Virus record (IMG/VR): IMGVR_UViG_3300028559_000027
Reading direction: 5' to 3' (one strand)
DNA from: an uncultured virus (IMG/VR IMGVR_UViG_3300028559_000027)
Lineage: Duplodnaviria > Heunggongvirae > Uroviricota > Caudoviricetes
DNA: 64,000 nucleotides
Shown here: piece by piece, positions 13,342 to 40,535 of the stretch
How positions within the stretch are numbered: the first letter of the stretch is position 1
Layout: each line of letters starts with the position of its first letter
The notes under the pieces: model-generated
The model's input: only the letters and a program-made list of their open reading frames with translations
Told to the model about the DNA's origin: nothing
Database searches by the model: none
Made by a program: the position numbers and the translations under genes

Positions 13342-14241
13342 TTAGTTGTATTGAAAGTTAAATCCAAGAATTTTTAGATACTCGTTTATCTGTTTGATTT
13401 GTTTAGGGCCGCAATTTTTTAAAAATCTACGGTGAAAGCCAAATATCTTTACTCTATCATTTATCGTAATTAGTTTATCAACTGAAAAATTTTCATCTAA
13501 AAATAAATCAAAACTAGAAGGGGAACATGAAATATGTTTATTTTTTATATGATTGTAATCAATTATTGTATTTTTTCCCAGGTCAATTTTATCATATGCT
13601 AAAAAAGAATATAAAATAAATTCACTTATACCATAATTTATCTTACGACCATCGATGAATAGAAGTTTATAAAAAATGTCATCTAGTATATTAGAATTTT
13701 TCAATACTTCGTATTCTATCTTAAACGGTGTTTCTGGTTTTAAAAAATATAAAGGTGTTACCTTTAAATCCAGCATATTTTTATACTGTGCTATAGCATC
13801 TACCCAACTTTTATCATTTCCATTTTTATATGGTTGATAGTCAAGGTAATTGTCGGGAGGTTCATTTACAAATTCTATAATGCCTGAGCCTATATAATTA
13901 TCCCATTCATCTATGTTAGATGGCTTTATGAAGAAATTTTTACTATCTAATATTAAATAGTCATCTTTAATTAAGTTTGCTATTTCAAGCTTGCATACTT
14001 GCTGAGTAAAATGACCATATATATTTTCTTTATTTTCAAACAGTTGTTGCTGTGATATAATCTTTAACTCATGTCTGCTATAAAAGGGACTCAGTAATTC
14101 TTCCCACGCTTCTATGTCAGTTATTTTTTCATTTACTATAACCCAATGACAACATGGTTCTAAAAATTTATGTATGCTTTCAGCTTGCAATAACATTAAA
14201 TGACGTTCCTTATTACAAGTTACTGTTACTAAATGTTTCAC
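13342..14241 (-). CDS. Glycosyltransferase-like protein (DUF6492-like)
   Basis: G..TQQ..KL and YLILDSKNFFIK motifs. Confidence 0.55.
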   Translation of the reverse strand: MKHLVTVTCNKERHLMLLQAESIHKFLEPCCHWVIVNEKITDIEAWEELLSPFYSRHELKIISQQQLFENKENIYGHFTQQVCKLEIANLIKDDYLILDSKNFFIKPSNIDEWDNYIGSGIIEFVNEPPDNYLDYQPYKNGNDKSWVDAIAQYKNMLDLKVTPLYFLKPETPFKIEYEVLKNSNILDDIFYKLLFIDGRKINYGISEFILYSFLAYDKIDLGKNTIIDYNHIKNKHISCSPSSFDLFLDENFSVDKLITINDRVKIFGFHRRFLKNCGPKQIKQINEYLKILGFNFQYN

Positions 14242-14558
14242 ACTCTAAAACTTTCCCCACAACCACATTTATCACGTTCGTTTGGGTTTTGAAACTCAAA
14301 CCCTTCATTCAACCCATTACGTGCATAGTCAATAATCATACCTTGAACGTATGCACAACTTTTTGGATCGACGTATAAAGTACAACCATTGCAGTCTACT
14401 TTAATATCGTATTCTAGTGGGTTATCAACATATTCAAGCACATAAGCAAGACCTGAGCATCCTGTAGTTTTTACACCTATACGAATGCCAAGACCTTTGC
14501 CCCGTTTTTGTATTGTCTGTTGTATTTTTTTTGACGCTTTGTCGGTTATACTAATCAT
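14238..14558 (-). CDS. iscA: Fe-S cluster A-type carrier
   Basis: GVKTTGCSGLAY and NPN...CGCGESF. Confidence 0.95.
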   Translation of the reverse strand: MISITDKASKKIQQTIQKRGKGLGIRIGVKTTGCSGLAYVLEYVDNPLEYDIKVDCNGCTLYVDPKSCAYVQGMIIDYARNGLNEGFEFQNPNERDKCGCGESFRV

Positions 14559-18289: not shown

Positions 18290-19831
18290 TTAAATCTTAC
18301 CTTGTTGTTTTGCTACAGCTAACAATCTTGCATCTGAAGGGTCAACTGTTTTTTTATTGTTCTTTTGTTTGCCGACAGAAATAGTAGGTTGTGAAGTTTT
18401 GCCTACCTCATTTTGTAAGCTTTTCAATATAGATTGTTTTTGTCTAGTAGATAAACCTTGCATCAACTTAGTGATTTGTGCAACAGTCATTTTAGCTTGT
18501 TGTGTTGAAGCTTGTGTAGATTGAGTAGTAGTATTTTGTGGTGTGGTTGTGGATGTTGATGGTGTTGGTAGTGCAGGCTTTGTAGTTTGTTCCGCTTCAG
18601 GATCTTTTAACTGCTGTGCATGACTCACAGAATATGCCAAGTTAGCTAACTTGGGTAAAGTTGTTCTACCTTTATCTTTTGCATAGGTTTGTTCTAACTC
18701 TTTAGCCAATGATGCTACATTAGTCGTTACAGTAGGATCACTGATATCCACATTCTTCATAAACTGTTTGAAGAAGTTAGTAATATATTGGCTGATAGTT
18801 TGTTTTGTTCCGCTTTGTGCAGGATCTTGTTCAGCTAAAATAGTTTCAAAGATATAGTTTAGCTTATCAAAACGACTACCTTCAGCAACCTTACCTAAGT
18901 TCTGTGCTATCTGCCCAAATGCATTTTTACCTGCATTTCTAGGTTTTACATTACGCTTAGGCATCGTAATAGTATTGTCCTTATATTTTTTAACAGATTT
19001 TTTGGCAGTTGATTGCTTTCTCTGTCTTACATTAGTCGCACTTTTGTTAAACTGGTCTGTGGGTAATGTACTTACTGGTAACATTTCACCTTGTGCATTT
19101 TGAGTAGCAACATTTTGCTGTTGTTGTCTTACATTGGCAGCACTCTTGGCAAACTGATCTGCCGGTAACTTGTTCATAGGATTCATCTGACCTTGTGCGG
19201 CTTGAGTTGCGGCAGCAAGTTTTTCTTGTCTAATCTGTTCAGGTGTCTTTGGTGTATCTACTGCTACAGCCGGTGCCTTTGTTGTCATCTGACCTTGTGC
19301 GGCTTGAGTTGCGGCAGCAAGTTTTTCTTGTCTAATCTGTTCAGGTGTCTTTGGTGTGGTAGCAGGTAATTTGCTATACGGTGACATTTGTTTGTTAGGA
19401 TCAATATTATACTTAGGACCTTCAGAAGCTCCTGGTTCTCTGATAGCATCTGCTTGTGCTTTTTGTGCGGCTATACGTTTTTGTGCGATAGCATCAGCCG
19501 CACTAGGTAGTTCGTCTTGTTGTGTAGTTTGAGTTGTCTGTGGAGTAGTTTGAGTTGTTTGCGGAGTAGTTTGTCCAGTAGTCTGAGCACCTTGACCTGC
19601 GGCATTAGGATCAACTAACCCGCCATTAATCGCACTTTGTAATCCGCTAAGGGCACGACTTGTGAATTTTGTAATATAATCATCTTTAGCCATTTGGTCA
19701 GTGGTGCTTAATACATTTTTACCGGCCAATGATCCTAGTCCTGTCCTTAATGCGGCAGAACCATAATCACCAAATAAACTTCTACTATCTATTTCATTTA
19801 CTACAGGTTTCTTAAATTCATTCAGCTTCAC
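18290..19831 (-). CDS. Low-complexity Q/T/A/P-rich protein with internal repeats
   Basis: N-terminal MKLNEF; PKTPEQIRQEKLAAATQAAQGQM occurs twice. Confidence 0.7.
   Translation of the reverse strand: MKLNEFKKPVVNEIDSRSLFGDYGSAALRTGLGSLAGKNVLSTTDQMAKDDYITKFTSRALSGLQSAINGGLVDPNAAGQGAQTTGQTTPQTTQTTPQTTQTTQQDELPSAADAIAQKRIAAQKAQADAIREPGASEGPKYNIDPNKQMSPYSKLPATTPKTPEQIRQEKLAAATQAAQGQMTTKAPAVAVDTPKTPEQIRQEKLAAATQAAQGQMNPMNKLPADQFAKSAANVRQQQQNVATQNAQGEMLPVSTLPTDQFNKSATNVRQRKQSTAKKSVKKYKDNTITMPKRNVKPRNAGKNAFGQIAQNLGKVAEGSRFDKLNYIFETILAEQDPAQSGTKQTISQYITNFFKQFMKNVDISDPTVTTNVASLAKELEQTYAKDKGRTTLPKLANLAYSVSHAQQLKDPEAEQTTKPALPTPSTSTTTPQNTTTQSTQASTQQAKMTVAQITKLMQGLSTRQKQSILKSLQNEVGKTSQPTISVGKQKNNKKTVDPSDARLLAVAKQQGKI
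19183..19357. repeat. Exact 73-bp direct repeat, 102-bp period
   Basis: 19183-19255 matches 19285-19357. Confidence 0.9.
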
Positions 19832-20066
19832 GGTTTTTCCTTAATGATTTGGAAAACTTTGCTTGATCCTTGCTCTTTATAGCACCTAACAGTTTACGCT
19901 CTAAAATAGCGGCTTGCTCTGGACTATAATTACGATTAATCATCTCTATTAGATTGATAGCACTGGTAATAATATTGTGGCCACGACTCTCAATAATGTG
20001 TGTCGTGTCCCTATTGTTACCAATTGCTTCTAGTTCTTCTAAGAGACTGCGAGTTTGTTTTTGCAT
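19818..20066 (-). CDS. Hypothetical protein
   Basis: AGGA SD and late motif upstream. Confidence 0.65.
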   Translation of the reverse strand: MQKQTRSLLEELEAIGNNRDTTHIIESRGHNIITSAINLIEMINRNYSPEQAAILERKLLGAIKSKDQAKFSKSLRKNREAE

Positions 20067-20101
20067 ATTAGTTTCCTAATAGTATTTATCTACTTTTAGG
20101 T

Positions 20102-21544
20102 TTATTTCTTTAAACTGTTTAACATTGCCTTGAGCTTAGAACCCTGAACATCTGCTATAATACGCTTATTTTCTGGCTCTAGTATCTCTCCCGTAGCCTG
20201 GTCTATGATAGGTTCAGTTGACTGTAACGTACTTTGCGGTTTAAGTTGACTCATAATATCATTAGCACTGGGCTTAGGAGTATAACTAGTCTGATTATCA
20301 GGGTCACTGTCACTAATACGCATAGTTTCAATATCATAGTCTAAGTCAATCTTTTGTCCTACACCAGTACTACTACGACTTTTCATACATTGAATTTGAT
20401 ACTTACCACGCTCACGCATACTGCGACTTGTAAAGATACCAAACACATTATCCGCTGTGTTAATCTTACTGATACCACCAGCAATGTGACTGTGGTCAAA
20501 CTCAATCTCATCAACAGCACTACGATTCAACTGCGATGCAGTCACCATCAGTATACCTAGCTCTTTTGCAAGATTACGTAGTTCTTCGGCAACATACTTG
20601 TCTTTGATAAACTGGTCGTTAGGATTAACTTTAACAGAGACGGGCATAACCAAGTCTAAGTAGTCAACCATCACAAAGTTAATCTTAATACCTGTTTGAA
20701 TTTGCACTTCTTTTAAGTAAGCACGAATATCATTCACATTACTTTGTGCAGGCAATCCTTTAACACGATACTGTCCTGACTTCTTACCAACCATCTTAAC
20801 TTTAAGACTAGTGGTATCAATATCTTTACGAATTGCTTTTGTACCCATCATAGTCAACATAGCATCTGTTCTTAATGATGTTAGTTCTTCACTAAGTTCT
20901 AATGTAATGTACACCCCGCTCATCCCTTGTTGCAACCAGTTCAATGCAATATTCATCATAACAAGACTCTTACCTGAACCTGAACCACCTGCAAAGATAT
21001 TAAGTTCACCCCTACTGAATCCACCGTATAAGATACGATCCATTTGTGGCCAGCCTGTACTTACTTGCCCACCATTGTTAAAGTATTTGTTGATACGTGC
21101 CGCCGGGTCATAGAAGTAATCAGTTCCCATATCTTTTTGTAAACTGATTTGAACTGCGTCTTTGATTAGTTTTTCAACTGGACCAAAGTCATCCTTCTCA
21201 AGTAAATCGGCAGCTTTAAGAATAGCTCGTTCCAACTCTTGTCGTTTAGTAAATGCTTCAAACTCATCTAAGAACCAATTAAATTGATTGGGACTAAAGT
21301 TAGGGATGATATCAATATCTTGTCCAGTAATAGCTTTAATCTGTGTCGGATCGGGTAAGATACTATATTTTGTAGTATGTTCTTTGTATAGATTTACGAT
21401 AGGTCTTAATGACCTATCAAAGTTTTCGCTGTTTAATATGTTCATAACTCTAGTGTAGAGTTCTGCCTCAGTAATCATTACACGCAAAAATATCTTTTGC
21501 ATCTCAATACCGTAATCTTTTTTATTTTCGTAATCTTTTTTCAA
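20102..21544 (-). CDS. Replicative DnaB-family helicase, T4 gp41-like
   Basis: Walker A GGSGSGKS, TLELSE, VDYLDL, TASQLNR. Confidence 0.92.
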   Translation of the reverse strand: MKKDYENKKDYGIEMQKIFLRVMITEAELYTRVMNILNSENFDRSLRPIVNLYKEHTTKYSILPDPTQIKAITGQDIDIIPNFSPNQFNWFLDEFEAFTKRQELERAILKAADLLEKDDFGPVEKLIKDAVQISLQKDMGTDYFYDPAARINKYFNNGGQVSTGWPQMDRILYGGFSRGELNIFAGGSGSGKSLVMMNIALNWLQQGMSGVYITLELSEELTSLRTDAMLTMMGTKAIRKDIDTTSLKVKMVGKKSGQYRVKGLPAQSNVNDIRAYLKEVQIQTGIKINFVMVDYLDLVMPVSVKVNPNDQFIKDKYVAEELRNLAKELGILMVTASQLNRSAVDEIEFDHSHIAGGISKINTADNVFGIFTSRSMRERGKYQIQCMKSRSSTGVGQKIDLDYDIETMRISDSDPDNQTSYTPKPSANDIMSQLKPQSTLQSTEPIIDQATGEILEPENKRIIADVQGSKLKAMLNSLKK

Positions 21545-22502
21545 TTTTCTTCCTCTGTAGTTCTATTTTGATTTTACTAGTTGTCGCACTACTCAATATA
21601 CTGAGTAATGTAGGCAACTTACCATACTTAACTACCGCGTCATTTACATCTTTAACACTGTCATCCCAGTTGGGAATACTTACACTATAACCTAGCTCTA
21701 ATGCTCTATCACACGTTTCTAAACCTGTCGCATCTCTATCGGGAATAAAGATAATACGTTTATTAAGTTGTGCTAGAATCTGTGCTTGGTCGTCATTGAT
21801 TGTATTATGTGTTAACGCACAAGCATTTAAGCTTAATGCGTCAAAGATACCTTCAACTAACAAACATACTTCCCAATCGGGTTTCTGAAAGTCATAACCA
21901 AATACATAGCCTGGTTGTTGCTCGTTAATATACTTTGGGATTTTGTTATCTAAGAATCTGCTCGTATGACCTACAATTTTATTCTTGTAAGTATAAGGGA
22001 TAATAATTCTGTTTGACTGTCTGCCAGTATCATTAGGTGTAACTAAGAACGGGTAGTCATTATAATTTATCGACCTCGCAGATAGATAATCAATGTATAC
22101 TTTGTGTAATGTGTTTTTAATATCAATTAATTCGCCTACAGGCAACGTATGTTCTTTAAATTTTATTTTTGATTTTTGTTTTTTAAGATTAGTAAAGTCT
22201 AGTAAATCTTTATGCTGTAAACTTTCTAAACTCCATTTACTAATTTGTTCAGGTTGAATACCTGACCACAATAATATATTTTTAGTATTTTGAGTAATAC
22301 TTTTACCCAACATAAATCCACACTTAAACCCACAGTTAAAGCAATGATATGACCAATTGAATTGCCCATCAAATTTAATACCACCACGCCCACGTGTATC
22401 AGTTTTATGCCCACGACGGCTACAACAGATAGCATTAAAACTATGCCATCCACCATGCGTGAGTTTTTTCTTTCCGGGAATTACTGATAGGATATCAAAC
22501 AT
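21522..22502 (-). CDS. DNA primase, T4 gp61-like
   Basis: Zn finger (CC...HCFNC); TOPRIM VEGIFDA, PDRD, KDVND. Confidence 0.9.
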   Translation of the reverse strand: MFDILSVIPGKKKLTHGGWHSFNAICCSRRGHKTDTRGRGGIKFDGQFNWSYHCFNCGFKCGFMLGKSITQNTKNILLWSGIQPEQISKWSLESLQHKDLLDFTNLKKQKSKIKFKEHTLPVGELIDIKNTLHKVYIDYLSARSINYNDYPFLVTPNDTGRQSNRIIIPYTYKNKIVGHTSRFLDNKIPKYINEQQPGYVFGYDFQKPDWEVCLLVEGIFDALSLNACALTHNTINDDQAQILAQLNKRIIFIPDRDATGLETCDRALELGYSVSIPNWDDSVKDVNDAVVKYGKLPTLLSILSSATTSKIKIELQRKKIEKRLRK

Positions 22503-23339: not shown

Positions 23340-23765
23340 TTGCCAAGCTACCCGATGATAAATATTTCGGTCAATATAACAACAATGATATCAAACGAAT
23401 TTTTTAATAAACTAACAACAAATCATCCGTTCATAACTATATGTTCATATGCCAACCAAGACTACGTTGGAATAGTTCAGAACCGTGATGATATAGTCAC
23501 CACTATTTACGATTATGGGTCTATAATAGAGTCTACTGTTAGAGAAAAATTCTTAGAACTAGGTGATATTTGGTGGTGGGAAAGTAATAGACTTATCCCA
23601 ATCAACCTCTTTTTAAAAGAAGAATGGATTATATTTAAACCATATCTCAGAACTTTTAATAACAAAAGTTTAACAGTAATACACGGCCCCTTGTGTAGTA
23701 TGTCTGAATTGAGTAAGCGCAGAAGCAAACGCCGTAGTATTACACTAGTAAAAAGAATAGTTTAA
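23340..23765 (+). CDS. Hypothetical protein
   Basis: Divergent ORF; GATAAATA at 23357-23364 suggests a start at 23385. Confidence 0.6.
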   Translation: MPSYPMINISVNITTMISNEFFNKLTTNHPFITICSYANQDYVGIVQNRDDIVTTIYDYGSIIESTVREKFLELGDIWWWESNRLIPINLFLKEEWIIFKPYLRTFNNKSLTVIHGPLCSMSELSKRRSKRRSITLVKRIV

Positions 23766-24334
23766 GTCTGTTCTTCTAGTAAATTCATATGGACCACTAC
23801 TAAATGTGCATATGCGATTGCATGACTCTTTTTAAAACTGTACCCATCAGTATTTGTATCCCAAATAGTCTTTGATATTTCAGACCATTGTTGCCCTATT
23901 AAATGTCGTTTAGCTGGTCTAATTAGTGCCAAAAACATTGCTAGTCTGGGAATGCTATTTACTGAACTTGGCATCTTCTGCAATGATTGATAATGATTCC
24001 CCAAGTGAATCAATTTCTCTACAAATTCTCTTTTATTTAAGTTATCCCAATTAGGCTCACGCATCAATGTTGCTAAATGTAGCTCATCACGAACATGAGA
24101 ATAAACGTGAACATTCAATAAATCTAGTTTGAAATACCCTCGTTGTTCTGCTTGAACATAGTCAATAGCTGCCATATCATTGACTGGATCATATGGTATG
24201 TCAGTAACATATACACCAGTAGCATGTTTACGCATAGGTTTAGCATTACGCATTGCCGCCGGGGTATGACGTATTAACTTTAACAAATCATCTCTTGACC
24301 CAAAGTCAATGTCAATGTCTGAATCAATTCTCAT
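23762..24334 (-). CDS. Miniature DnaE (Pol III alpha)-like protein
   Basis: Ordered C-family motifs DIDIDF, KHATGVYV, GYFKLDLL, LALIRP and YSFKKSHAIAY in 190 aa. Confidence 0.85.
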   Translation of the reverse strand: MRIDSDIDIDFGSRDDLLKLIRHTPAAMRNAKPMRKHATGVYVTDIPYDPVNDMAAIDYVQAEQRGYFKLDLLNVHVYSHVRDELHLATLMREPNWDNLNKREFVEKLIHLGNHYQSLQKMPSSVNSIPRLAMFLALIRPAKRHLIGQQWSEISKTIWDTNTDGYSFKKSHAIAYAHLVVVHMNLLEEQT

Positions 24335-24885
24335 CTTGGGAGAGGTACCAGTTCTGCTTTAATTAATTTAGTATACGCTTTTTGCACAACAATAGCTTGT
24401 CTTTCGGCATCTTCAACTGCCTTGTGACTGGTTACGTGACCGCCGTCTTTAAGACTTACTCCGGTTATCTCATACAAGGTACGTGTATCTCTGACGGTGT
24501 AGAAAGGCCAGGGGATTCGCATTTCGAGATTTCTCCAGGCCGACTCTGCCACAACCACATCGAATGATGCACCATTGCTCCAAACAGCACGGCGATTCCA
24601 ACAAAACTTATAAAGTATTTCCATACACTCTCTAAATGGAATTCTGCCATTTTCTCCCATAGCCTCTTCAAGTGCTTCAGGACTTTGCTCACTCCACCAA
24701 CGTAATGTATCTTCATTGATACTCCTATTGTATATTTCTGTCTGTTCTTCAATTGTAGGTCGCAACTCTAATCTTTCAACAACCCCACTACCTTTAGGAT
24801 CGAATCTTACTGCACCAATGGTTAATATAACACAATTAGGACTTGTGTCAAGTGTTTCCATATCAATCATTATATCCTGTGCCAT
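24331..24885 (-). CDS. DEDDh 3'-5' exonuclease (Rv2179c/ExoVIII-like)
   Basis: IDMETL, WSNGASFD, RDTRT, H.A.EDA. Confidence 0.88.
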   Translation of the reverse strand: MAQDIMIDMETLDTSPNCVILTIGAVRFDPKGSGVVERLELRPTIEEQTEIYNRSINEDTLRWWSEQSPEALEEAMGENGRIPFRECMEILYKFCWNRRAVWSNGASFDVVVAESAWRNLEMRIPWPFYTVRDTRTLYEITGVSLKDGGHVTSHKAVEDAERQAIVVQKAYTKLIKAELVPLPR

Positions 24886-24886
24886 A

Positions 24887-25237
24887 TTATGCCTGTAATG
24901 TTTTCCAAATATATTTCTTCTCTAAGTAATCTTGTAGCTTCAATGCTTCTGTCTCGCTATTGAATGCTACACCTTTAATCTCATACATATCTTCTAAGTA
25001 GGTAGCATAGTCACCGTTAACATCTTGTGCCCAAGTGTTCCATGTAATCCACATAATATCTAATTCGTCTTTTACAATTGATATGCTAATACCTACTTCT
25101 TCACTGCCTATATAGTCAAACAACACATCCAATAGTTTTTTCTTTGTGTGAAAGTGTTTAATGTTCTGCCATTTAGGCCATGATAACATAAATTTATTAT
25201 CTTGTAAAGCTGTTATGGGAAAGGGTGTATTGTTCAT
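24887..25237 (-). CDS. Hypothetical protein
   Basis: Overlapping operon ORF. Confidence 0.55.
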   Translation of the reverse strand: MNNTPFPITALQDNKFMLSWPKWQNIKHFHTKKKLLDVLFDYIGSEEVGISISIVKDELDIMWITWNTWAQDVNGDYATYLEDMYEIKGVAFNSETEALKLQDYLEKKYIWKTLQA

Positions 25238-25509
25238 TGGAATTTTAATAAAAATATTAGGTACTTCTTTTCGTCAACAATCTCATAACCATCTGTTATG
25301 TTGCCATTGACTATATTCATCTTTACACCATACTTTCCTATAAGATAATCTTCAAAATCATATGCGTCAAACTCACGGTTTTGTTCCATATATTCTTTAC
25401 GCACTTTCTTCAATGCTTCCCAATAGTTCCAACGATTTCTACGTTGGTTTATATTTGGATCATCGTCATCGTAGTCCTGTATGTGAGGTATTGATACCAT
25501 CAACTCCAC
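25234..25509 (-). CDS. Small protein, FxLxW-like family
   Basis: C-terminus IVDEKKYLIFLLKFQ. Confidence 0.6.
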   Translation of the reverse strand: MELMVSIPHIQDYDDDDPNINQRRNRWNYWEALKKVRKEYMEQNREFDAYDFEDYLIGKYGVKMNIVNGNITDGYEIVDEKKYLIFLLKFQ

Positions 25510-25742
25510 CTCAATGTGAATAAAATGTAATCTCTCTCATATCTAAACTTGAAGCTAATAGTGTCATCATCAGTTACACCCCATCTACAATGCCTTTCAT
25601 ATTTGCCTATATTAGTTTCTAACCATTTAATTATTTCATTAATTTTGTCAAAACGTTTGGCACGAACTGTGCATTCATACCAACCGGGTTTGGTGTTTTC
25701 CCATCCGACAGCATAGTCATAATGTTCAATTATCATCCCCAC
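25500..25742 (-). CDS. Small protein, FxLxW family
   Basis: C-terminus FRYERDYILFTLRWS. Confidence 0.65.
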   Translation of the reverse strand: MGMIIEHYDYAVGWENTKPGWYECTVRAKRFDKINEIIKWLETNIGKYERHCRWGVTDDDTISFKFRYERDYILFTLRWS

Positions 25743-25957
25743 CTCAACATAAAATAACTTGCATTAACATCATTGTAAAAAGTAAACACAGTATGCTTCT
25801 CTAGTTCTGGTTCCCAATTAGATCCACTAAAGCTGTCATAGATTGGTTTATGATAAGCAAAATCAAAATCTTTACCCATGAACCAACCGTGACGTTTTAA
25901 CTCATTAACTATTTCTAAGGTTCTACTAACATCAATGTACAATGTTACTTGACGCAC
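25733..25957 (-). CDS. Small protein, FxLxW family
   Basis: C-terminus FYNDVNASYFMLRWG. Confidence 0.65.
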   Translation of the reverse strand: MRQVTLYIDVSRTLEIVNELKRHGWFMGKDFDFAYHKPIYDSFSGSNWEPELEKHTVFTFYNDVNASYFMLRWG

Positions 25958-25958
25958 T

Positions 25959-26153
25959 TTAACCCCATCTTAATTCAAAATGAACAGCGTCACGCTCATC
26001 TTTAAAATAGAAATCCATATAATCTACGGTAGGATCTGTACTAAATTTATCTCCCGGTAATCCGTACTGTTCTATAGCCCAAGCACAGGTTTCATTCCAA
26101 TCTATAATATCTCCCTTTTTCCAAGGTATACGGACTCTAGTACCCGCCTGCAT
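25959..26153 (-). CDS. Small protein, FxLxW family
   Basis: C-terminus FKDERDAVHFELRWG. Confidence 0.65.
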   Translation of the reverse strand: MQAGTRVRIPWKKGDIIDWNETCAWAIEQYGLPGDKFSTDPTVDYMDFYFKDERDAVHFELRWG

Positions 26154-26859
26154 TCAATAACTCCTTAACTTGTTTCACATTCTCAGGCTCACGATTGAAT
26201 TTAATCTTCCATAGTTCTGGATTAATATAGTCAATAACCATCTTAACCTGTGATTCATTTAAACCATCTAAGAACTTCACGCCACTATTACTCTGATATA
26301 GCATCCAAGGACTAAGTTTACCATTGGTAATACTATGGCATATCTTGTTAGGGTTACCGTAACACAAATAGTCTTTAGGTACAATACCCTCTTTCTCTGC
26401 TAAATCCATAGTAGTTTGGACACTACGTGCAATAGCATCTAATGGATCTTCAATACGCAAATACTCAATCAGATACTTTGTATAGACGCTATCACTTGCC
26501 CACGTATCAATTTTGATGTTATTTTTTAACAACCAATCTACGTATCTGCTAATATTGATGGCATTGATATTTGCACAATGAGTCCCAAACTTTACAAAGG
26601 CAGTATAATAAGCACTACGAATGAACTCCTCATAAGTTTTATTCTTTTTAGTACTAGTATTCTTTTTATAAAACTGTAGCCAAGATTGAAAGCCAATACG
26701 ATTGCCTTGCATATCTTTATTCATCCAACGTTGTTTGTTTTCGCATAGGTGTTTAGCCATAGTAGACTCACGTAGGAACTCTCTATTGCAAAAATCACAA
26801 CCATATTTGATTGTCTTATCAGTTGCCTCTGTCTTTTTCGTATTGAGTGATATCTTCAT
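26137..26859 (-). CDS. Zinc-finger protein
   Basis: CDFCNREFLRESTMAKHLC, a C2H2/C2HC-like finger. Confidence 0.6.
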   Translation of the reverse strand: MKISLNTKKTEATDKTIKYGCDFCNREFLRESTMAKHLCENKQRWMNKDMQGNRIGFQSWLQFYKKNTSTKKNKTYEEFIRSAYYTAFVKFGTHCANINAINISRYVDWLLKNNIKIDTWASDSVYTKYLIEYLRIEDPLDAIARSVQTTMDLAEKEGIVPKDYLCYGNPNKICHSITNGKLSPWMLYQSNSGVKFLDGLNESQVKMVIDYINPELWKIKFNREPENVKQVKELLNAGGY

Positions 26860-27412
26860 CTGTAACCGTTTGGCTTAGTACTTCTATGTCTGCTATTTTT
26901 AAATGGGGGTATATTTCTGCAAGATGCATTTTCTTTCTCTGCTCTTGCACAAATGCCTTTGAATATTCTGTTATATCCTCACTATTTGCTTTAGGATAAA
27001 TCTTTGTAAAGTACTCTTTGATTTCTTTTACTTGTGCAGGTTCTTTTAACAAACTAACACGTTCTTTAATCTGAGGTAACCATTGATGATATTGTTTACC
27101 TTTACCGGGGCTTGCCGCACACATCATATACCATTGTAGTTTAGGATGCTTTGATACATTTTCATTAAAGAAGTATTTGTTAGCGTGATATTCTGTACTC
27201 ATTGCATAGTATCCTGCAATATCACTAGAACCCTTTACATAACTTAACCACTTGATTAACATAAACGGAACAAACTTACGTTGTTGCTCGGGCGTAAGTC
27301 TATCATAATAACCATAGTCCTTCTTGTCTAGTGCCGCAATAGCTTCAAACAAGTTAAAGTCTTGATTCTCTAATTTCTCATCTTGAGGTATTGCTATTTT
27401 CTTTGTTGCCAT
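26819..27412 (-). CDS. Possible clamp-loader small subunit (gp62-like)
   Basis: F.PFML.KWLS and ...QWL pattern reminiscent of gp62; replication context. Confidence 0.4.
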   Translation of the reverse strand: MATKKIAIPQDEKLENQDFNLFEAIAALDKKDYGYYDRLTPEQQRKFVPFMLIKWLSYVKGSSDIAGYYAMSTEYHANKYFFNENVSKHPKLQWYMMCAASPGKGKQYHQWLPQIKERVSLLKEPAQVKEIKEYFTKIYPKANSEDITEYSKAFVQEQRKKMHLAEIYPHLKIADIEVLSQTVTDEDITQYEKDRGN

Positions 27413-27932: not shown

Positions 27933-29390
27933 TTATCTGTATGTCAACTTTTCTAAGTCAAAAGGGTAATTGGCTTCACGGTAAAAAGCTTTACGTTGGG
28001 TCAAGTGACGTTTGGCAAACTTACAACTACTGGTTATGTCCCAGATTTGTACAAAGTCTTTATCTTCTGCTTTACGAATGCCTCGACCGATGCTTTGGAT
28101 AACACGGACAAAGGATTTTCCAGGTTCAATGAGAACCAGATTAAAAATACGAGGTATGTTGATACCAACAGCGGCGACACCATAAGTAGCAACAATGATT
28201 TTATTTGTGCTGGTTGCAATTTCATCATATTCTTCTTTCCTATCAACCATATTAGTAGCACCACTGACGAACACACTGTCCGGTAACCTACTAATAATTT
28301 CTTTACCTGCATTAACTCTATCAACTAGGACCAAGACATTACCACTCTCTTTAATCTTTAGTATCAATTCAGCAATAGCATCCAGTCTGTGTGTATCTTC
28401 TAATAAATGTTTCAACTCACTTTGGTAATTAGTGAACTCTACATCGTCTTTCAGTTGTACAATATTAACGTGACATTGTGCTAACACACCTTGATCCTGC
28501 AATTCACTTGCACTTAATTTACTGATTACAGGGCCTAAACTAACAAACAACGATTGTGCTTCAAACTTAGCTTTAGGGATAGTACCTGTTAGCCCCCACC
28601 GAATGGGAACTTTAGCAAACACACCTGTAAGTAATGTTTTTAATGCGTCTGCTTTGGCCATATGCACTTCATCAACCATTACACAAACAACACCTTCAAT
28701 GAAGTCACTGATATTTACTTCAGCTTCTCCGGCTTTTGTTTTCTTAAGCATATTGTTAAGGCTCTGCCAAGTACAGATAGTGTGTGTTTTATTGTATTCT
28801 TTACGATCACCAAAGTATACGCCAACATCTAATCCAAGATTAATGTAATCTGCTTCTGTTTGTGTTACTAGACTTTTGTTTGGAACGATAACGATACTAC
28901 GTCCATATTGTTCTATGCTATAACTTAGTGCGGCAGTCATCAATGTTTTACCCGCGCCTGTTGCAATTTCTTGCAATGATTGTGGATTCTTTAAAAAGTT
29001 ATTAACGATACTAATTTGATAGTCACGTAATTCTACAGGTGTACCTTCTTTGGGATGACCTTTAGGCCAGTTCTTATGAGCAAACGTTGACTCAGACACT
29101 TCAGCAAATTCAAAGGTTGTGGTATAATCCCTTGTATCATCCAACTCAATATCATATCCTGCTCTATCTAATACAGGAAGTATTTCTTCTAACAAATTAA
29201 TGTAAGTACTTCCTGCTAAACTGAAATAACTTACCTTACCGTTCCATCTACCCAGTCGTACTGCGGGTAGATAACGTGCTCCGGGTACTTCGTACTCAAA
29301 CATTTTCATCAGTGCTTTACGCTCTGCAAGTTCAAGGCCTTCTATCTTTACGTTAACTTCATCTTTAACGATTATCTTACATTGTTTCAT
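27933..29390 (-). CDS. uvsW: SF2 helicase, UvsW-like
   Basis: LRDYQ, ATGAGKT, DEVH, GLTGT, QSIGRGIR. Confidence 0.88.
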   Translation of the reverse strand: MKQCKIIVKDEVNVKIEGLELAERKALMKMFEYEVPGARYLPAVRLGRWNGKVSYFSLAGSTYINLLEEILPVLDRAGYDIELDDTRDYTTTFEFAEVSESTFAHKNWPKGHPKEGTPVELRDYQISIVNNFLKNPQSLQEIATGAGKTLMTAALSYSIEQYGRSIVIVPNKSLVTQTEADYINLGLDVGVYFGDRKEYNKTHTICTWQSLNNMLKKTKAGEAEVNISDFIEGVVCVMVDEVHMAKADALKTLLTGVFAKVPIRWGLTGTIPKAKFEAQSLFVSLGPVISKLSASELQDQGVLAQCHVNIVQLKDDVEFTNYQSELKHLLEDTHRLDAIAELILKIKESGNVLVLVDRVNAGKEIISRLPDSVFVSGATNMVDRKEEYDEIATSTNKIIVATYGVAAVGINIPRIFNLVLIEPGKSFVRVIQSIGRGIRKAEDKDFVQIWDITSSCKFAKRHLTQRKAFYREANYPFDLEKLTYR

Positions 29391-33492: not shown

Positions 33493-34795
33493 AATATTAG
33501 TAGCCTTCGATTATTTCGCCCCCACTTATCCATTGCTTAATAATCAAAATTTTAATCAACCATTAGATAAATTAGAAATAGATAATGGAGTATACGAGTT
33601 TTTTAAATCATTGGATGGGTTTGAATGCGTACCGTCATTATCATTAAAAGAACTTGATTATTTCGTATATCCAATTCGTTTAGGATTAAAGCCTGATGAT
33701 TGGATAAATCGTCCAGAAATAGATTTATTAGCTACTACTAATATATCGATTCATACATTTAATGGAATAAGAGGTAGAAATGGATTTTTACTTCTTGATT
33801 TGGGACATGAATCTATATTAAATGATAAAATTATAGATACTATCCATGAGTATTTAAAACTAAAAGATATTCCTTTAAGAAAGGTAATATTACAAACCGG
33901 TAGTGCAAATGGTGAAAAATACTATAAAGAATATTGTTTTAAAAAACAAATTAGTAGAGGAATCAATATATGTTGTATAGAATATTTTGAATGGCTGAGT
34001 AGTAGATTAGTAACGGAAAATAAAAAAATTAATAATAAAATTCTTCCAAAAAACGTAGACTATAGTAAAATTGAAAAAACATTTCTATGCCTAAATAGAG
34101 TTCATCGATGGCATCGTGTTAATTTATTTGTGTTATGGAATATCAATAATCTAATGGAAGATTCTTATTATACAATGAATAATAAATCCAATTTTCCTGT
34201 AGGTGAGGATTATGATAATGATATTTGGAGAAGAACTATTGATACTAGATTAGTTAATAAATTAGGATTAACTGAAGAAGATATAGATAAAATACAAGTC
34301 ACATTGCCTTTAAAAATAGATGAGTTTGTGGAACCAGATGTTATGGCTAAATTATTTGGTACAGTAGATCCGTATTACCAACGTAGTTTAATTAGTATAG
34401 TTACTGAAACCAATTTTCAAAACAACGATATTTTTAATACAGAAAAGATATTTAAACCAATGGTTCATAGGCACCCATTTATTCTAGTAGGTTCATATAA
34501 AACATTAGAATATCTAAAAGAACTGGGATATAAAACATTCAGTGATTTTTGGGATGAAACATATGATGATATTGAAGATCCATTTGAAAGATTATTAAAG
34601 ATAGTAGAAATTTGTAAAGATATACAAAGTTGGAATGATGCTAAAAAGAAAAAGTTTTTCTATAAGTCAATGGTTATTACTAACCATAATTATGATTTAT
34701 TAACTTCTCAATACCCTGACAATATGCGTAAAAGCTTTTGGCATAGATTAAGAGATTATGCTGTATTTCAACGGGATAAAGACAAACCTTTTTAA
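33485..34795 (+). CDS. Glycosyltransferase-like protein, paralog B
   Basis: Full-length paralog of A; PKNVDYSKIEKTFLCLN is identical in both. Confidence 0.5.
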   Translation: MNRILVAFDYFAPTYPLLNNQNFNQPLDKLEIDNGVYEFFKSLDGFECVPSLSLKELDYFVYPIRLGLKPDDWINRPEIDLLATTNISIHTFNGIRGRNGFLLLDLGHESILNDKIIDTIHEYLKLKDIPLRKVILQTGSANGEKYYKEYCFKKQISRGINICCIEYFEWLSSRLVTENKKINNKILPKNVDYSKIEKTFLCLNRVHRWHRVNLFVLWNINNLMEDSYYTMNNKSNFPVGEDYDNDIWRRTIDTRLVNKLGLTEEDIDKIQVTLPLKIDEFVEPDVMAKLFGTVDPYYQRSLISIVTETNFQNNDIFNTEKIFKPMVHRHPFILVGSYKTLEYLKELGYKTFSDFWDETYDDIEDPFERLLKIVEICKDIQSWNDAKKKKFFYKSMVITNHNYDLLTSQYPDNMRKSFWHRLRDYAVFQRDKDKPF

Positions 34796-35817
34796 ATAAA
34801 CCCTTTAATGACCTGACTATAATCATTCATAGCAGATTGTATTTTATTATTGGTTGAGTTAGGTCTGCAAGGTTTACAGAAACTTGTTATAAAATTATTA
34901 TAGATTTCTTTGTGTTTATCACTACACCATATATCTCTAAAATCATCATCTATCCAAGAACCTAATTTAGTATCTTCTCGGCCTTTATATTCACAGCAAA
35001 GATATATATTTCCGTCAGCACAAAAACTAGGGAACAAAAACATCTGATGGCAACGTTTATATTCTCTTGCATCATATCTACCTAATGATACGTCTGCCTT
35101 AATGCCATAAAATTCACTTGCAGTTTTAATCCTACTAGCAACTTCATCATTCATAATAAAGCTATGACCATTCAATACCATAGGTCGTAGATGCACTGCA
35201 CGTGCGTTAACATCTCTTGCGTATTCAAATATACTGTTGATTTCTAATTGGCTTGTGTTCTCTGGCATTAATAATGCTTTTATATCTAATGGAACACCTT
35301 TACTACCTAACTCTTTTGCAGTCTCTTTGACTCTACCAAAAGGGCTATCTGTCATTTTGCTTTTACGTATTAACTCATAAGTGTCAGGATTACCACTGTC
35401 AATATCAAGACCTACATAAGCCATACGCTTTAACTTATCAGTATCAATAGTTAATATCTTGTGTAGTTTTGTGCCGTTTGTATTCATAGCGGCAACATAA
35501 CCTTTATCAATCACATCTTCCAATAAATCTTCATAGCCTGGAAGTAGTGTAGGTTCACCTCCACCACTGAAGATAACATTACTTAATGTTCCAATTACAT
35601 TACTATCGTGTTGACGCCAAGTATGTAATCTGTCAATTAACTTGATATATTGGTCCACAGTTTGATACACCGGCAACTCTGTTCTGAATTGTTCGGTGTT
35701 ACAGTAATAGCAGGCTTGATTGCAGATATTTGTAGTGTCTAAATCTATCTGCCATGGTAGTATTTTACCTGGTATATTACCTTGTATCCAACGTGAGATT
35801 AATTGATACTGATCCAT
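34792..35817 (-). CDS. Radical SAM enzyme with SPASM/twitch domain
   Basis: CNQACYYC, SGGGEP, NTNG; C-terminal C..DGNIYLCC..CKPC. Confidence 0.9.
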   Translation of the reverse strand: MDQYQLISRWIQGNIPGKILPWQIDLDTTNICNQACYYCNTEQFRTELPVYQTVDQYIKLIDRLHTWRQHDSNVIGTLSNVIFSGGGEPTLLPGYEDLLEDVIDKGYVAAMNTNGTKLHKILTIDTDKLKRMAYVGLDIDSGNPDTYELIRKSKMTDSPFGRVKETAKELGSKGVPLDIKALLMPENTSQLEINSIFEYARDVNARAVHLRPMVLNGHSFIMNDEVASRIKTASEFYGIKADVSLGRYDAREYKRCHQMFLFPSFCADGNIYLCCEYKGREDTKLGSWIDDDFRDIWCSDKHKEIYNNFITSFCKPCRPNSTNNKIQSAMNDYSQVIKGFI

Positions 35818-35826
35818 CAGTCACTT

Positions 35827-36288
35827 TTATCCTATTGTAATATCTTCCATGCCGGCTGTACGCAATCTTACAATGTGACCCATCTGCCATTGTTTAGCTT
35901 CAAGACCTTTCATAATTCCCAACCACTTATTTCTTAGTAATGCCACTTCATTGATAAGTGTTTCAAAATCTACAACTTCATCTTCACCATCAACATACTT
36001 TTCAGCATCACGACTTGTCAATACTCTATTGTATGCTTCTAAGTATTTTTGAAAGTGTTTACGGCGAATTTGACGTAGTTTAATATTAAGATAGTTTAAT
36101 ACTGCTTCTATCTCTTGTAGTTGATTAAAACGATGTTCGGTATGTCCCGGAATAGCGGCAATGTTCTTTTCAACATTACCGTATACCTTTACCTCACTTT
36201 TTGCAGATAATAATTCATTCTCAAAATGAATGATAAAATCGGGTATCACACTTAAATTTTGTGATACCCTTGTGTACCAATTTGACAT
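35827..36288 (-). CDS. uvsY: Recombination mediator, UvsY-like
   Basis: Helical; YLE.Y...L...D.EKYVDG pattern; next to UvsX. Confidence 0.7.
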   Translation of the reverse strand: MSNWYTRVSQNLSVIPDFIIHFENELLSAKSEVKVYGNVEKNIAAIPGHTEHRFNQLQEIEAVLNYLNIKLRQIRRKHFQKYLEAYNRVLTSRDAEKYVDGEDEVVDFETLINEVALLRNKWLGIMKGLEAKQWQMGHIVRLRTAGMEDITIG

Positions 36289-36537
36289 TTAATCCCATTC
36301 TTCGTGGTCTTCGTCTTCATCATATTCTTCATACTCTTCGGCATCGTGTTGATCGGTATAACCTTTTAACGCCTTAAGTACCTCTTTGTCATTCTTAAAG
36401 GCATCTTTAATTTCGTCTGCTTCATAATTGTTATCAATTAATAAATTGATTAATGTGTCGGCAGCATCACCGCGTTCGTTGAAATCAATATGAGTTCGCA
36501 ATGCGTCCCATACTTCAGTAACAAAATTTAAACTCAT
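36289..36537 (-). CDS. Acidic hypothetical protein
   Basis: Operon ORF. Confidence 0.6.
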   Translation of the reverse strand: MSLNFVTEVWDALRTHIDFNERGDAADTLINLLIDNNYEADEIKDAFKNDKEVLKALKGYTDQHDAEEYEEYDEDEDHEEWD

Positions 36538-37601
36538 TCTGTACCCTCCTCCTCAGGTGTTACAGTACTTATCTTTGTTGTTGATTTTTGACCATACTCA
36601 GTCATAACTTTGTCTAAGCATCCGTCACTATTTGCTTCCCATGCTTTACGAAACTTTTTAATGATTTCACCATCAAGTGTTGTATAGACTAAACTGTTAC
36701 CTTCTTTCTTAACAAGTTCAGCCTTCTCAATCATATCTAATAATCCTGAGTAAGGGCTCATACCTGTTTCGTAAGGAATCTTAACTTGTACAGATTCAAA
36801 TGGTTTCGCATAACGAGTTTTCATAATTTTACATGCCGCACGAATTCCTCGCACATCACTAATCTTATTACCATCTTCATCTTCTTTAAGTTTTAGTTTC
36901 TTCATAGCAACAACGATACTTGATGCGTAAACGAAACCTTGGCCGCCTGAGATTTTATCATCTGGATCAAACATATCTTGACTAGCATATGTGTGATTAG
37001 TAGCAACTAAGCCAATACCCAATGAACCAAACATATTAACACAGTTACGAACAAGTGCTGTTAGTGCTTTAGGCTTACGACCCATGTCACCTTTCATATC
37101 ACCTGCTTCAAACTGATTAACATCAGTCGGAGTCAATAACATGCCCAAAGAGTCAATTACAAACAATACCTTAGGACGATCTGTTTCTGGTAGTGTTTTG
37201 TAATCTTTAACGAACATAGAAATAGTTTTTCCTACTTCGTCAATCATAGCCATGTTTAATTTTAATAGTTTATTATCAGCAGTATCCACACCAAGTGCGT
37301 GTAGCCATGCTTCGTCAAGGGCATTCTCTGAGTCAACTAAGACTACAAAAATTCCTTGTTCTTGTGCGTGTCGGACGAGGTTTCCTGAGCAGATGAACGA
37401 TTTCCCGGCGCCTGACTCTCCGGCAAAGACAGTAACTTTACCAAGAGGTACGCCTTTATTAAAATCACCGCTAATGAGGTAGTTGAGAGCATAATTTCCT
37501 GTCGAGATCCAATCAGTAGGATCGTTAAATCCTATTGACAGACCTTCAATACTTTTTGTAATATCCTTACGGAACTTACTTACGTCAAAAGGTTTTGCCA
37601 T
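36534..37601 (-). CDS. uvsX: RecA/UvsX recombinase
   Basis: GESGAGKS, DSENALD, VIDSLG, ISGGQG. Confidence 0.92.
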   Translation of the reverse strand: MAKPFDVSKFRKDITKSIEGLSIGFNDPTDWISTGNYALNYLISGDFNKGVPLGKVTVFAGESGAGKSFICSGNLVRHAQEQGIFVVLVDSENALDEAWLHALGVDTADNKLLKLNMAMIDEVGKTISMFVKDYKTLPETDRPKVLFVIDSLGMLLTPTDVNQFEAGDMKGDMGRKPKALTALVRNCVNMFGSLGIGLVATNHTYASQDMFDPDDKISGGQGFVYASSIVVAMKKLKLKEDEDGNKISDVRGIRAACKIMKTRYAKPFESVQVKIPYETGMSPYSGLLDMIEKAELVKKEGNSLVYTTLDGEIIKKFRKAWEANSDGCLDKVMTEYGQKSTTKISTVTPEEEGTE

Positions 37602-38078: not shown

Positions 38079-39083
38079 TTAAGACTTGTTTTGTCTAGCA
38101 CGAATCATTGCTAGAATATCTTGTGCTTTGTCACTTGATGTGCCAGATGCCGGTACACTAACTGGTGCAGTTGTTGTTGCGGGTTCATCTTCCCATGGTG
38201 CTGAAGTTTCTGCTACGGGTGCTGTTGCGGTTGCTCTAGTTTCAGTAGTAGCTGTTTGTTTATCCGCTGTCGCTCCTGCAGGTGCTTCTAGTCCCCAAGG
38301 ACGATAGTAACTACCCCAACGCTCATTGTCAAACGGTTGACCATCTACTGATGCTTCAAACATTTCTTTAATGATGCGTAACTCTGCTTCATTAGGCTTC
38401 TTAGGTAAGAAGTCTGTTAAGTTGAACAAACCATGTGCTTCAATAGCGGCTTGTTCTGACTCATTCAATGGTGATTCTTTACGTGCCCAATTACTAGTAG
38501 AGTAATCTGCGTAGCCACCTTTACTTGTTTTCTTAATGTTGAAGTCAACACCACGCAAGTAATCTGTTGGCAATTCTTCCATTTCAGGATCCATCAAACT
38601 AGATTTAATCACATTAAAAATTTGTGAGCTGATAACAAATCTGCGGATTGGATTTGCTGGTAATTTGTCGTCGCCTAGTGGATTCTGACGAACAAAACCT
38701 TGGAAGATGTAACTACGTTTCTTCCAATACTTGTTAGCCATTTCTTTCAATGTTTCGTCTTTGTACCAAGGACGAACTTCTGCCAAGATTGGGCAAGTCT
38801 CACCTGTACCATACATTTCAATACAAGGTACTTGAACAACTATTTGTTTAATGTTTGAATCACCCTTGACACCATTGAACGGCAACTTAATCAGTTGACG
38901 CTCTACCCAGAAAAATGTATTACTACTATTTGCATCGGGCAAGAAACGAACTGTGGCTGTTGTGCCTTCGTCAATATTCCAATGGGGATAGATAGAGTTA
39001 TCTGATTGAGTATTAGAACTCTTGTTGTTTGTTTTGTTGTCTTGTGCCGCGATACGAGCACGAATGTCTGCTAATGATGCCAT
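38079..39083 (-). CDS. Single-stranded DNA-binding protein, gp32-like
   Basis: VRFLPD, C.E..G..CP, G.DF.IKK...GY.DY..S.W. Confidence 0.85.
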   Translation of the reverse strand: MASLADIRARIAAQDNKTNNKSSNTQSDNSIYPHWNIDEGTTATVRFLPDANSSNTFFWVERQLIKLPFNGVKGDSNIKQIVVQVPCIEMYGTGETCPILAEVRPWYKDETLKEMANKYWKKRSYIFQGFVRQNPLGDDKLPANPIRRFVISSQIFNVIKSSLMDPEMEELPTDYLRGVDFNIKKTSKGGYADYSTSNWARKESPLNESEQAAIEAHGLFNLTDFLPKKPNEAELRIIKEMFEASVDGQPFDNERWGSYYRPWGLEAPAGATADKQTATTETRATATAPVAETSAPWEDEPATTTAPVSVPASGTSSDKAQDILAMIRARQNKS

Positions 39084-39241: not shown

Positions 39242-40534
39242 TTACCCTTTTATATAGGGTAGTTCGATTAATTTGTCCAACATACGTGAATATGTTTCAG
39301 ATAAATTTTTACCTCTCAACACATCATATTGAACTACTTCTTGTTCTAAATTAGGTTTAACGTCATTTTCCATCCAGTTAGCGACTTCTTTTGGTGATAC
39401 TGGTGTAGAATCATCACCCAAGTTATATAACTTAGGTAAATATTTTATTAACATATCCTGAATCTGTTTATCCGAATATCCATTTTGTTGAATAAATGAA
39501 ACATATTTACTCTTAAACATGGTAAATAATCCATATATATGGTCGTCTCTCCATTCATTGTAATCACTATTGTCCTGAGTTGTTAGAACACCTTGTTTAT
39601 TAAGAATTTTGGTATCTTCTAGTTGCAGTTCGGGTTGAATAGCTGTAGTCGGGGAACCGCCGGATGGACGTTTACCTGCTATCCAAGGGATACTTGCTTT
39701 TCGTTTTGTGCGGGCAATTAAATCATTTACATTAAGTACTTCTTGCTCAATCTGTTTTCGCATACCTATAATAGCATTTTTTTCTTGTTCTATTTCGCTA
39801 TCAAAATTGTCAATTTGTTTTTGATAACCTTGAACTATATCAGAATACTTTTTAATTTCTTCAGCAGAATTTTTAGCTATTTGTTGTAGTTCTACATTAG
39901 TAGTCTTTTTATAGTTATCTGTTTTATCAATGTAATTTTGAAATCGCATTTCTTTACTATCCAAATCTTGCTTTGTTTTTTCAAGTTGTGCGGCAACCGC
40001 ATCATAATTAACATTTGCTTTACTTTGAATATTGTTTACTAGACTTTGTAACTTCTTAACATCAGCATCTTCTGCACCATTACTATTAGCCAAACTAGTA
40101 ATCTGTTGCTCTATCTCTTTGTATTTCTCAGCATCCATACCAGGCTTAGATTTTAAATCTTCTAAATCTTTTTGTAGCTTCTCTAACTCATCAGCACTTA
40201 CTTTAGCCTTCTGTTGTCTATCAGCACTACCAGTAGTTAATGCACCACTTAGTTGTTTCAATCTTTCAACTTCACGGTCAGTTTCTTGTGCTTGGTCTTC
40301 ATAATCTTGTAACTCTTGCCCAATAGACTTAATAGCCTTCTGTTGGGTATTGATTAAGTTATTTTGTGCATCATCAGTTTTTTGTTGTTTGGCAGCTTTA
40401 TCAGCTATGTATAAGGACAATGCTTGTTGGCTATCATAGCCAGGAAACCTCAACATGGCTCTCTGCATCAAATCTTTATCTAAAGATAATGTAGGACCTT
40501 TTTGTGCTTCTCTTAACAATGACGATATTTTCAT
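39242..40534 (-). CDS. Coiled-coil hypothetical protein
   Basis: Q/K/E heptads; N-terminus MKISSLLRE. Confidence 0.65.
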   Translation of the reverse strand: MKISSLLREAQKGPTLSLDKDLMQRAMLRFPGYDSQQALSLYIADKAAKQQKTDDAQNNLINTQQKAIKSIGQELQDYEDQAQETDREVERLKQLSGALTTGSADRQQKAKVSADELEKLQKDLEDLKSKPGMDAEKYKEIEQQITSLANSNGAEDADVKKLQSLVNNIQSKANVNYDAVAAQLEKTKQDLDSKEMRFQNYIDKTDNYKKTTNVELQQIAKNSAEEIKKYSDIVQGYQKQIDNFDSEIEQEKNAIIGMRKQIEQEVLNVNDLIARTKRKASIPWIAGKRPSGGSPTTAIQPELQLEDTKILNKQGVLTTQDNSDYNEWRDDHIYGLFTMFKSKYVSFIQQNGYSDKQIQDMLIKYLPKLYNLGDDSTPVSPKEVANWMENDVKPNLEQEVVQYDVLRGKNLSETYSRMLDKLIELPYIKG

Positions 40535-40535
40535 A

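Follow-up and report, generated by a model that had tools for sequence, protein, structure and literature searches.

A 190-residue C-family polymerase protein of an uncultured T4-like phage as the probable C-terminal unit of a two-gene minimal DNA polymerase III alpha

A "split minimal DNA polymerase III alpha" was described from sequence in group 2.2 jumbo phages by Iyer et al. (2021, Viruses 13:63, PMC7824862), in passages that set the split enzyme beside a family B polymerase, suggest one-strand synthesis or repair as its role, and put it forward as a model for the ancestral DNA polymerase III (Pol III) module. On the text of that article, the idea of a split mini-polymerase is already published, and the relevant passage of a 2025 genome paper merely lists a "DNA polymerase III DnaE" gene (PMC11895373). 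Here, we analyze a 190-amino-acid (aa) open reading frame (ORF) with the sequence motifs of C-family DNA polymerases, encoded in 64,000 nucleotides of DNA from an uncultured virus (IMG/VR record IMGVR_UViG_3300028559_000027), a stretch that is called the window below in its full length. In the initial annotation, the ORF had been read as a miniature polymerase coupled to a 3'-5' exonuclease, either a minimal enzyme in its own right or the core of a split replicase. We now consider it highly probable that this ORF is the C-terminal unit (the C half) of a two-gene minimal Pol III alpha of T4-like (group 2.2) jumbo phages, the other unit (the N half) being encoded by a separate gene. The main import of the analysis is a correction, in that the ORF is in all likelihood half an enzyme and its link to the exonuclease is not a general one.

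All five motifs initially noticed in the ORF occur in the order that they have in DnaE, namely DIDIDF (residues 6–11), KHATGV (36–41), GYFKLDLL (66–73), LALIRP (135–140) and GYSFKKSHAIAY (164–175). The C half matches PHROG 11778, annotated as "DNA polymerase," with an e-value of 5.8e-58 (residues 5–189 on positions 7–194 of a profile of 197). A scan of 1.84 billion representative proteins with the C half yielded 396 relatives at an e-value of ≤ 1e-3, and the window protein was aligned with 80 of 150 listed relatives (those of 179–219 aa whose match took in almost the full query), the other 70, which were shorter, partial or longer, being excluded. Across the resulting 81 sequences (31–56% identity), D6, D8, K69, D71, R139 and P140 are invariant, and D10, H37, G40, K142, K168 and H171 are conserved in at least 90%. 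When the 81-member profile was compared against the PDB at an e-value of ≤ 1, 10 distinct sequences were retrieved, nine of them Pol III alpha chains (e-values from 1.1e-5 to 2.1e-4) and the tenth an unrelated protein (e-value 0.87). The Hidden Markov Model (HMM) alignment pairs D6, D8 and D10 with D401, D403 and D405 of E. coli alpha, residues 54–140 with E. coli 538–641 (K69 with K553 and D71 with D555), and residues 151–179 with E. coli 739–768. The initially proposed span of roughly E. coli 400–770 is thereby borne out, and the three catalytic aspartates are all present as D6, D8 and D71.

The AlphaFold 2 (AF2) model of the C half has a predicted local distance difference test score (pLDDT) of 96.1 and a predicted template modeling score (pTM) of 0.89. 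In the Foldseek comparison that the initial annotation had proposed as a check, ranks 1–16 are all C-family polymerases. With VIA-align, the best 14 entries are all DnaE or PolC (Z 6.0–9.4), 169–187 of the 190 residues being aligned at a root-mean-square deviation of 3.3–5.0 over E. coli 397–780; the best unrelated entry reached Z 3.6. Within this range, 43 C-half residues stand in place of E. coli 406–537, a segment that includes the thumb, and about 10 in place of the 97 finger residues 642–738. The thumb of E. coli alpha reportedly occupies about residues 433–510, and by these domain limits, attributed to Lamers et al. 2006, it is essentially gone from the C half. The PHP, clamp-binding and OB regions are missing, as had been supposed, and the chain stops at the equivalent of about E. 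coli 780. By both sequence and fold, the C half is a homologue of E. coli alpha 397–780, and it retains the three metal-binding aspartates and the finger motifs RP..K and KKSH.

At 90% identity, at least 7985 homologous clusters were counted for the C half, the best 120 of which are 187–206 aa long, and no longer or fused homologue was retrieved from the 90%-cluster database at an e-value of ≤ 1e-3, an absence that is weak evidence. By tblastn, the C half was located in 96 phage records, with at least 80% of the query covered in 93, and homologues 32–48% identical to the window protein are encoded by RaK2, 121Q, PA5oct, Atu_ph07, XacN1 and Phosso. The ratio of nonsynonymous to synonymous substitution rates (dN/dS) between the window gene and the genes of relatives, 11 of which were hand-picked from 80 loci for an equal match length of 570 nt, was 0.055–0.137 in all 11 pairs, several of which have a dS close to saturation. 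Judged from these comparisons, the C half is a genuine compacted derivative of the C-family catalytic core under selection, neither a truncation nor a decaying fragment. The initial argument for internal compaction rather than simple truncation holds up well: the homologues are neither full-length nor decaying, and the aspartate triad is conserved.

The opening segment of the palm, with the GRGS loop, is missing from the C half, whose chain begins only at the counterpart of E. coli 397. A search of whole phage records with the Pfam DnaE model PF07733 brought up a separate small gene, the N half, with scores above the cut-off; its product measures 177 aa in Sinorhizobium phage Phosso and 169 aa in Pseudomonas phage Ettore. 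Both proteins contain GVGRGSSVASYV about 25 residues ahead of the C-terminus, and they end in ..FDEFLN (Phosso) and ..IKEFLK (Ettore); in relatives, the N half is a gene of about 168 aa with a GVGRGSS nucleotide-binding loop. The model of the N half from the closest complete relative (record G002, with a C half 81% identical to that of the window) has a pLDDT of 78.6, which falls below 50 at the GRGS loop (136–141). Its residues 73–168 align to E. coli 278–393 with Z 8.8, the best 11 entries all being C-family polymerases. The N half ends at E. coli 393 and the C half begins at 397, and the split therefore falls between these two positions, inside one palm domain. Residues 1–72 of the same N half (G002; L087:1216–1431) form a small strand-rich extension that, by fold comparison, is without counterpart in solved C-family polymerases.

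The two halves are distributed alike. By tblastn, 94 phage records contain the N half and 96 the C half, the counts by genus being almost equal, and the N half likewise forms at least 7985 clusters at 90% identity. Six of 10 long IMG/VR records with the C half also hold the N half, among them all three records that are at least 90% complete. In a protein of 375 aa (P0167), a natural fusion, the N half comes first, followed by a linker of about 10 residues and the C half; if real, this protein would be the smallest single-chain C-family polymerase core. Elsewhere the genes lie well apart, at distances of 11 kb in Alishewanella phage Slickus01, 15 kb in XacN1, 31 kb in 121Q, 34 kb in RaK2, 43 kb in PA5oct, 182 kb in Atu_ph07 and 224 kb in Phosso. 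The genome of Alishewanella phage vB_AspM_Slickus01 (OQ508957.1, 141,644 bp), with the halves at about 68.4 kb and 79.8 kb, is well under the 200-kb "jumbo" limit, and the split-polymerase family is therefore not confined to jumbo genomes.

Within the window, the N half was not found (best tblastn e-value 0.12; no frame with a G[RK]GS motif). In the closest complete relative, about 42.5 kb separate the C half from the start of the N half downstream, and the N half of the present phage would lie beyond the window, about 19 kb past its left end if the same gene order is kept. The supposition of a split replicase was right as to the split, but the partner is not a small protein encoded nearby, being 11–224 kb away in cultured relatives. 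Three of the neighboring ORFs that had been proposed as completing parts end in the LRW tail of an unrelated family of mini-proteins.

The initial annotation had also noted that no other polymerase lies in the window. None was detected there with PHROGs and Pfam among 81 greedily chosen non-overlapping ORFs of at least 50 aa, and the family B polymerase of a relative gave a best tblastn e-value of only 0.16 against the window; however, this is an effect of the limits of the window, as 4 of 5 long relative records contain a family B polymerase (open frames of 914–1117 aa). All three near-complete uncultured relatives with the N half also encode a full family B polymerase. As for other Pol III domains, PHP (PF02811) and HHH_6 (PF14579) gave no match in the records of five relatives (OB was not searched separately), and the sole match to the finger domain PF17657 in these records lies inside the Phosso C-half gene. 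In one record of 524,565 bp that is rated 100% complete (G003), two family B matches were observed, at 19736–21112 and 508767–510176, in frames of 1117 and 917 aa; these may represent two polymerases or a concatenated or chimeric assembly.

On the two-gene reading, the N half and the C half would dock as two chains and build one Pol-beta-type active site, in which the N half would hold the triphosphate of the incoming deoxynucleotide, and the C half would bind two Mg2+ and use the finger helices that it retains to touch primer and template. Since the thumb, clamp-binding and OB parts are missing, such an enzyme should be distributive and poorly processive. Its most likely task would be short-patch synthesis (primer extension, gap filling or repair) beside a T4-type family B replicase, not that of the main replicase. 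The window encodes a T4-type set of replisome genes (DnaB helicase, primase, UvsW-like helicase, UvsX, UvsY and gp32-like SSB), and the replication block around the C half, from the UvsW-like helicase to the primase and DnaB helicase, is common to Phosso and Ettore. The proximity of primase and helicase had been noted at the outset and is borne out.

Several observations weigh against this interpretation. The Pfam model PF07733 (DNA_pol3_alpha) does not match the 190-aa ORF at an e-value of ≤ 1, and the Foldseek e-values are weak, the best being 5.9e-3 and none reaching 1e-3. The N half was not found in 4 of the 10 long IMG/VR records with the C half, which are 21–58% complete, nor in the record nearest to the window, a 50-kb fragment. 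The fusion protein is a singleton cluster from one 2415-bp ENA contig and is known from protein only; its DNA was sought in IMG/VR and not found. Literature searches found no bench work on any member of the split minimal Pol III alpha. Finally, of 80 close loci, 61 have the exonuclease gene next to the C half, in most cases with a stop codon that overlaps the start codon; this exceeds what a random passenger might show.

An alternative that we regard as unlikely is that the two-chain enzyme is real and yet not a templated polymerase, but a template-independent terminal transferase or tailing enzyme, or the maker of a nucleotide signal or counter-defense product, like other Pol-beta-fold transferases. 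The loss of the thumb, clamp-binding and OB parts and the reduction of the fingers would suit such an activity, as would the full family B replicase of the relatives, with which replication has no obvious need of a two-chain enzyme. Against it, the DnaE-aligned finger motifs RP and KKSH are kept invariant or nearly so, the gene lies within a conserved replication block, and all of the structural neighbors above Z 6 are replicative C-family polymerases.

The gene directly upstream encodes a DEDDh exonuclease that matches PF16473 (Rv2179c-like) over its whole length with 111.3 bits (cut-off 27; e-value 5.5e-32), and in which the DEDDh residues D8, E10, D109, H154 and D159 do not vary among 26 of 26 aligned sequences. 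By sequence, the only solved relatives of the exonuclease within an e-value of 0.01 are 8KEL (e-value 1.6e-4, residues 4–112) and the mutant 8KEN, identified as structures of T4 DexA, a DNA-scavenging, intron-homing nuclease (PMC12153337). On the minus strand, the junction of the exonuclease and the C half reads CCAAGATGAGAATT, so that the stop codon TGA of the former and the ATG of the latter share ATGA. Adjacency was assessed in 80 close IMG/VR loci with C halves 73–100% identical to that of the window. The exonuclease lies within 12 nt upstream of the C half in 61 of these; another gene intervenes in 8 (394–1608 nt), no exonuclease homologue occurs within at least 2.8 kb upstream in a further 8, and 3 loci are too short to assess, so that the exonuclease is non-adjacent in 16 of 77 assessable loci. 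In the 8 loci that lack it, a different gene of 229–230 aa takes its place, its end likewise overlapping the start of the C half; homology of this gene to the 240-aa C2H2-like protein of the window was considered and rejected (best blastp e-value 0.02 over 22 residues). Searches of whole records found the exonuclease in the closest complete relative (G002), but not in G004 (95% complete), G006 (58% complete, where no N half was found either), Phosso or Ettore; G004, Phosso and Ettore carry both polymerase halves. The ATGA coupling read in the initial annotation is real in the present phage, but it is lineage-specific and not a property of the polymerase family.

In E. coli, epsilon binds the PHP domain of alpha. 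By analogy, the exonuclease of the freshwater clade to which the present phage belongs could be a trans-acting proofreader bound to the mini-polymerase in a three-protein proofreading enzyme, which we hold to be improbable. The ATGA overlap, the short distance in 61 of 80 loci and the intact, invariant DEDDh site speak for a proofreader; the lack of the exonuclease in the three records just named that hold both halves speaks against one, as do the intervening genes in 8 of 80 loci and the substituted gene in another 8. Moreover, the PHP domain, the docking site of epsilon, is missing here, and the nearest solved sequence relative is the scavenging and homing nuclease DexA. A complex prediction with the N half of G002, the C half and the exonuclease, in which the exonuclease was scored, gave a score of 0.00 and is not used as evidence either way. 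If the proofreader reading were true, a captured, translationally coupled DexA/Rv2179c-like exonuclease would complete a three-protein proofreading polymerase of about 540 residues, acting next to primase and helicase in primer extension or gap filling before hand-off to the family B replicase. Most likely, the exonuclease is a lineage-specific passenger of a variable slot, a DexA-like nuclease and not a fixed subunit, which would be co-transcribed and translationally coupled with the C half.

The initial suggestion that the 190-aa protein is a working minimal nucleotidyltransferase by itself is very improbable. The protein does carry all three catalytic aspartates and two finger motifs and is modeled with confidence as a fold of its own, but it begins at the E. 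coli 397 equivalent, without the GRGS loop and palm residues 278–393; a separate gene for exactly this missing segment co-occurs with it (in 94 versus 96 phage records and in all three near-complete relatives), and the natural fusion joins both halves. A non-catalytic structural or regulatory remnant of a larger DnaE, for which the heavy domain loss and the failure of the Pfam DnaE model might speak, is scarcely credible given catalytic residues invariant in all 81 sequences across 31–56% identity, the low dN/dS, and a length that is constant across thousands of clusters.

By its gene content (Table 1), the window is a piece of a T4-like giant phage genome, and it also encodes a tail sheath and further virion proteins recognized with PHROGs and Pfam. 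Downstream of the C half, all 79 assessable loci, those of Phosso and Ettore among them, have a homologue of the convergent 141-aa ORF, with an insert of 0.5–0.7 kb between the two genes in 4 of the 79; this may be only gene-order conservation. On the other side, the 240-aa C2H2-like protein has exclusively viral neighbors in the ESM Atlas, one cluster of which is named C2H2-type; in Ettore, its homologue immediately precedes the C half, and in Phosso the distance upstream is 1.1 kb. The C2H2-like protein upstream and the convergent ORF downstream form a conserved frame for the C half, inside which a variable slot is filled by the exonuclease together with the small ORFs at 24887–26153.

Table 1. 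Coordinates of the C-half gene, its motifs, its neighbors and other annotated genes in the window
Feature	Position	Strand	Basis or remark
Probable C-terminal unit of split minimal DNA polymerase III alpha (C half), 190 aa	23762..24334	minus	ORF list, PHROG 11778, PDB profile search, AF2 model, VIA-align
Codons of D6-I-D8-I-D10, first metal-binding motif (E. coli D401, D403, D405)	24305..24319	minus	conservation and HMM alignment to E. coli 400–406
Codons of K69-L-D71 (E. coli K553 and third catalytic Asp D555)	24122..24130	minus	aligned to E. coli GLVKFDFL
Retained finger motifs, R139-P140 (E. coli ALFRPG) through K168-x-x-H171 (E. coli FNKSH)	23822..23920	minus	aligned to E. coli 639–641 and 739–768
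Rv2179c/DexA-like DEDDh 3'-5' exonuclease, 184 aa, lineage-specific upstream neighbor	24331..24885	minus	PF16473, PHROG 255 "exonuclease"
ATGA stop/start overlap of exonuclease and C half	24331..24334	minus	sequence reading
Convergent 141-aa ORF, PHROG 11637	23340..23765	plus	3' end overlaps C half by 4 nt
Virus-only protein, 240 aa, N-terminal C2H2-like motif, PHROG 11058	26137–26859	minus	
DnaB-type helicase	20102–21544		PHROGs/Pfam
Primase	21522–22502		PHROGs/Pfam
UvsW-like helicase	27933–29390		PHROGs/Pfam
UvsY	35827–36288		PHROGs/Pfam
UvsX	36534–37601		PHROGs/Pfam
gp32-like SSB	38079–39083		PHROGs/Pfam
Large terminase	42804–44351		PHROGs/Pfam
Fe/Mn superoxide dismutase	379–936		PHROGs/Pfam
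IscA-like Fe-S assembly protein	14238–14558		PHROGs/Pfam
Radical SAM/SPASM enzyme	34792–35817		PHROGs/Pfam
Thymidylate synthase	51772–52671		PHROGs/Pfam

Three small minus-strand ORFs at 25500–26153 (80, 74 and 64 aa) encode the LRW-tail mini-proteins, which end in ..FTLRWS, ..FMLRWG and ..FELRWG. For the 197-aa ORF at 26819–27412, a resemblance to the T4 gp62 clamp-loader subunit was considered, but phmmer retrieved nothing from the PDB at an e-value of ≤ 1, and no claim is made for it. Two large adjacent ORFs of 430 and 748 aa (39242–42782, minus strand), between the SSB and terminase genes, gave no PHROG match at an e-value of ≤ 1e-5 and no meaningful Pfam match at ≤ 0.01.

The split mini-polymerase is very common in nature. 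Its two chains of 190 and about 168 residues would make up a C-family polymerase core far smaller than any other. Its interest lies in whether DNA can be copied by a palm that is divided between two proteins and makes no thumb or clamp contacts, and in the contribution of a second polymerase to a T4-type replisome.

Among known systems, DnaE and PolC (2HNH, 3E0D, 3F2B) share with the two-gene enzyme the Pol-beta-type palm, the three aspartates, the equivalent of K553, and the RP and KSH finger motifs. In contrast to them, the C half has 190 aa (358 aa together with the N half) instead of 1160 and is devoid of PHP, thumb, clamp-binding, OB and tau-binding regions; the palm is split over two genes, of which the C half falls below detection with PF07733 and the N half of relatives scores above threshold; and the enzyme is probably not the main replicase. 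The placing of a C-family core gene next to a DEDDh 3'-5' exonuclease gene resembles the E. coli pair of alpha and epsilon (DnaE-DnaQ). Unlike epsilon, however, the exonuclease is of the Rv2179c/DexA-like family PF16473, with no other Pfam family at an e-value of ≤ 1; the PHP domain is absent, and the pairing is not conserved across the polymerase family. The exonuclease is closer to T4 DexA and other Rv2179c-like enzymes, with PF16473 matched over its whole length and the DEDDh residues intact, although it is shorter than DexA (184 versus 227 aa) and of low similarity to it.

The closest system is the split minimal Pol III alpha of the cultured phages (PMC7824862). The C half belongs to the same profile family, and in its relatives the half with the aspartates and the GRGS half are likewise encoded far apart, further Pol III domains are absent, a family B polymerase is encoded, and the replisome genes are T4-like; its equation with the published protein set rests on the text of that paper and on the phage names. 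What distinguishes the present locus is its origin in an uncultured phage, its 32–48% identity to the cultured homologues, and the DEDDh exonuclease and LRW-tail mini-genes inserted upstream of the C half.

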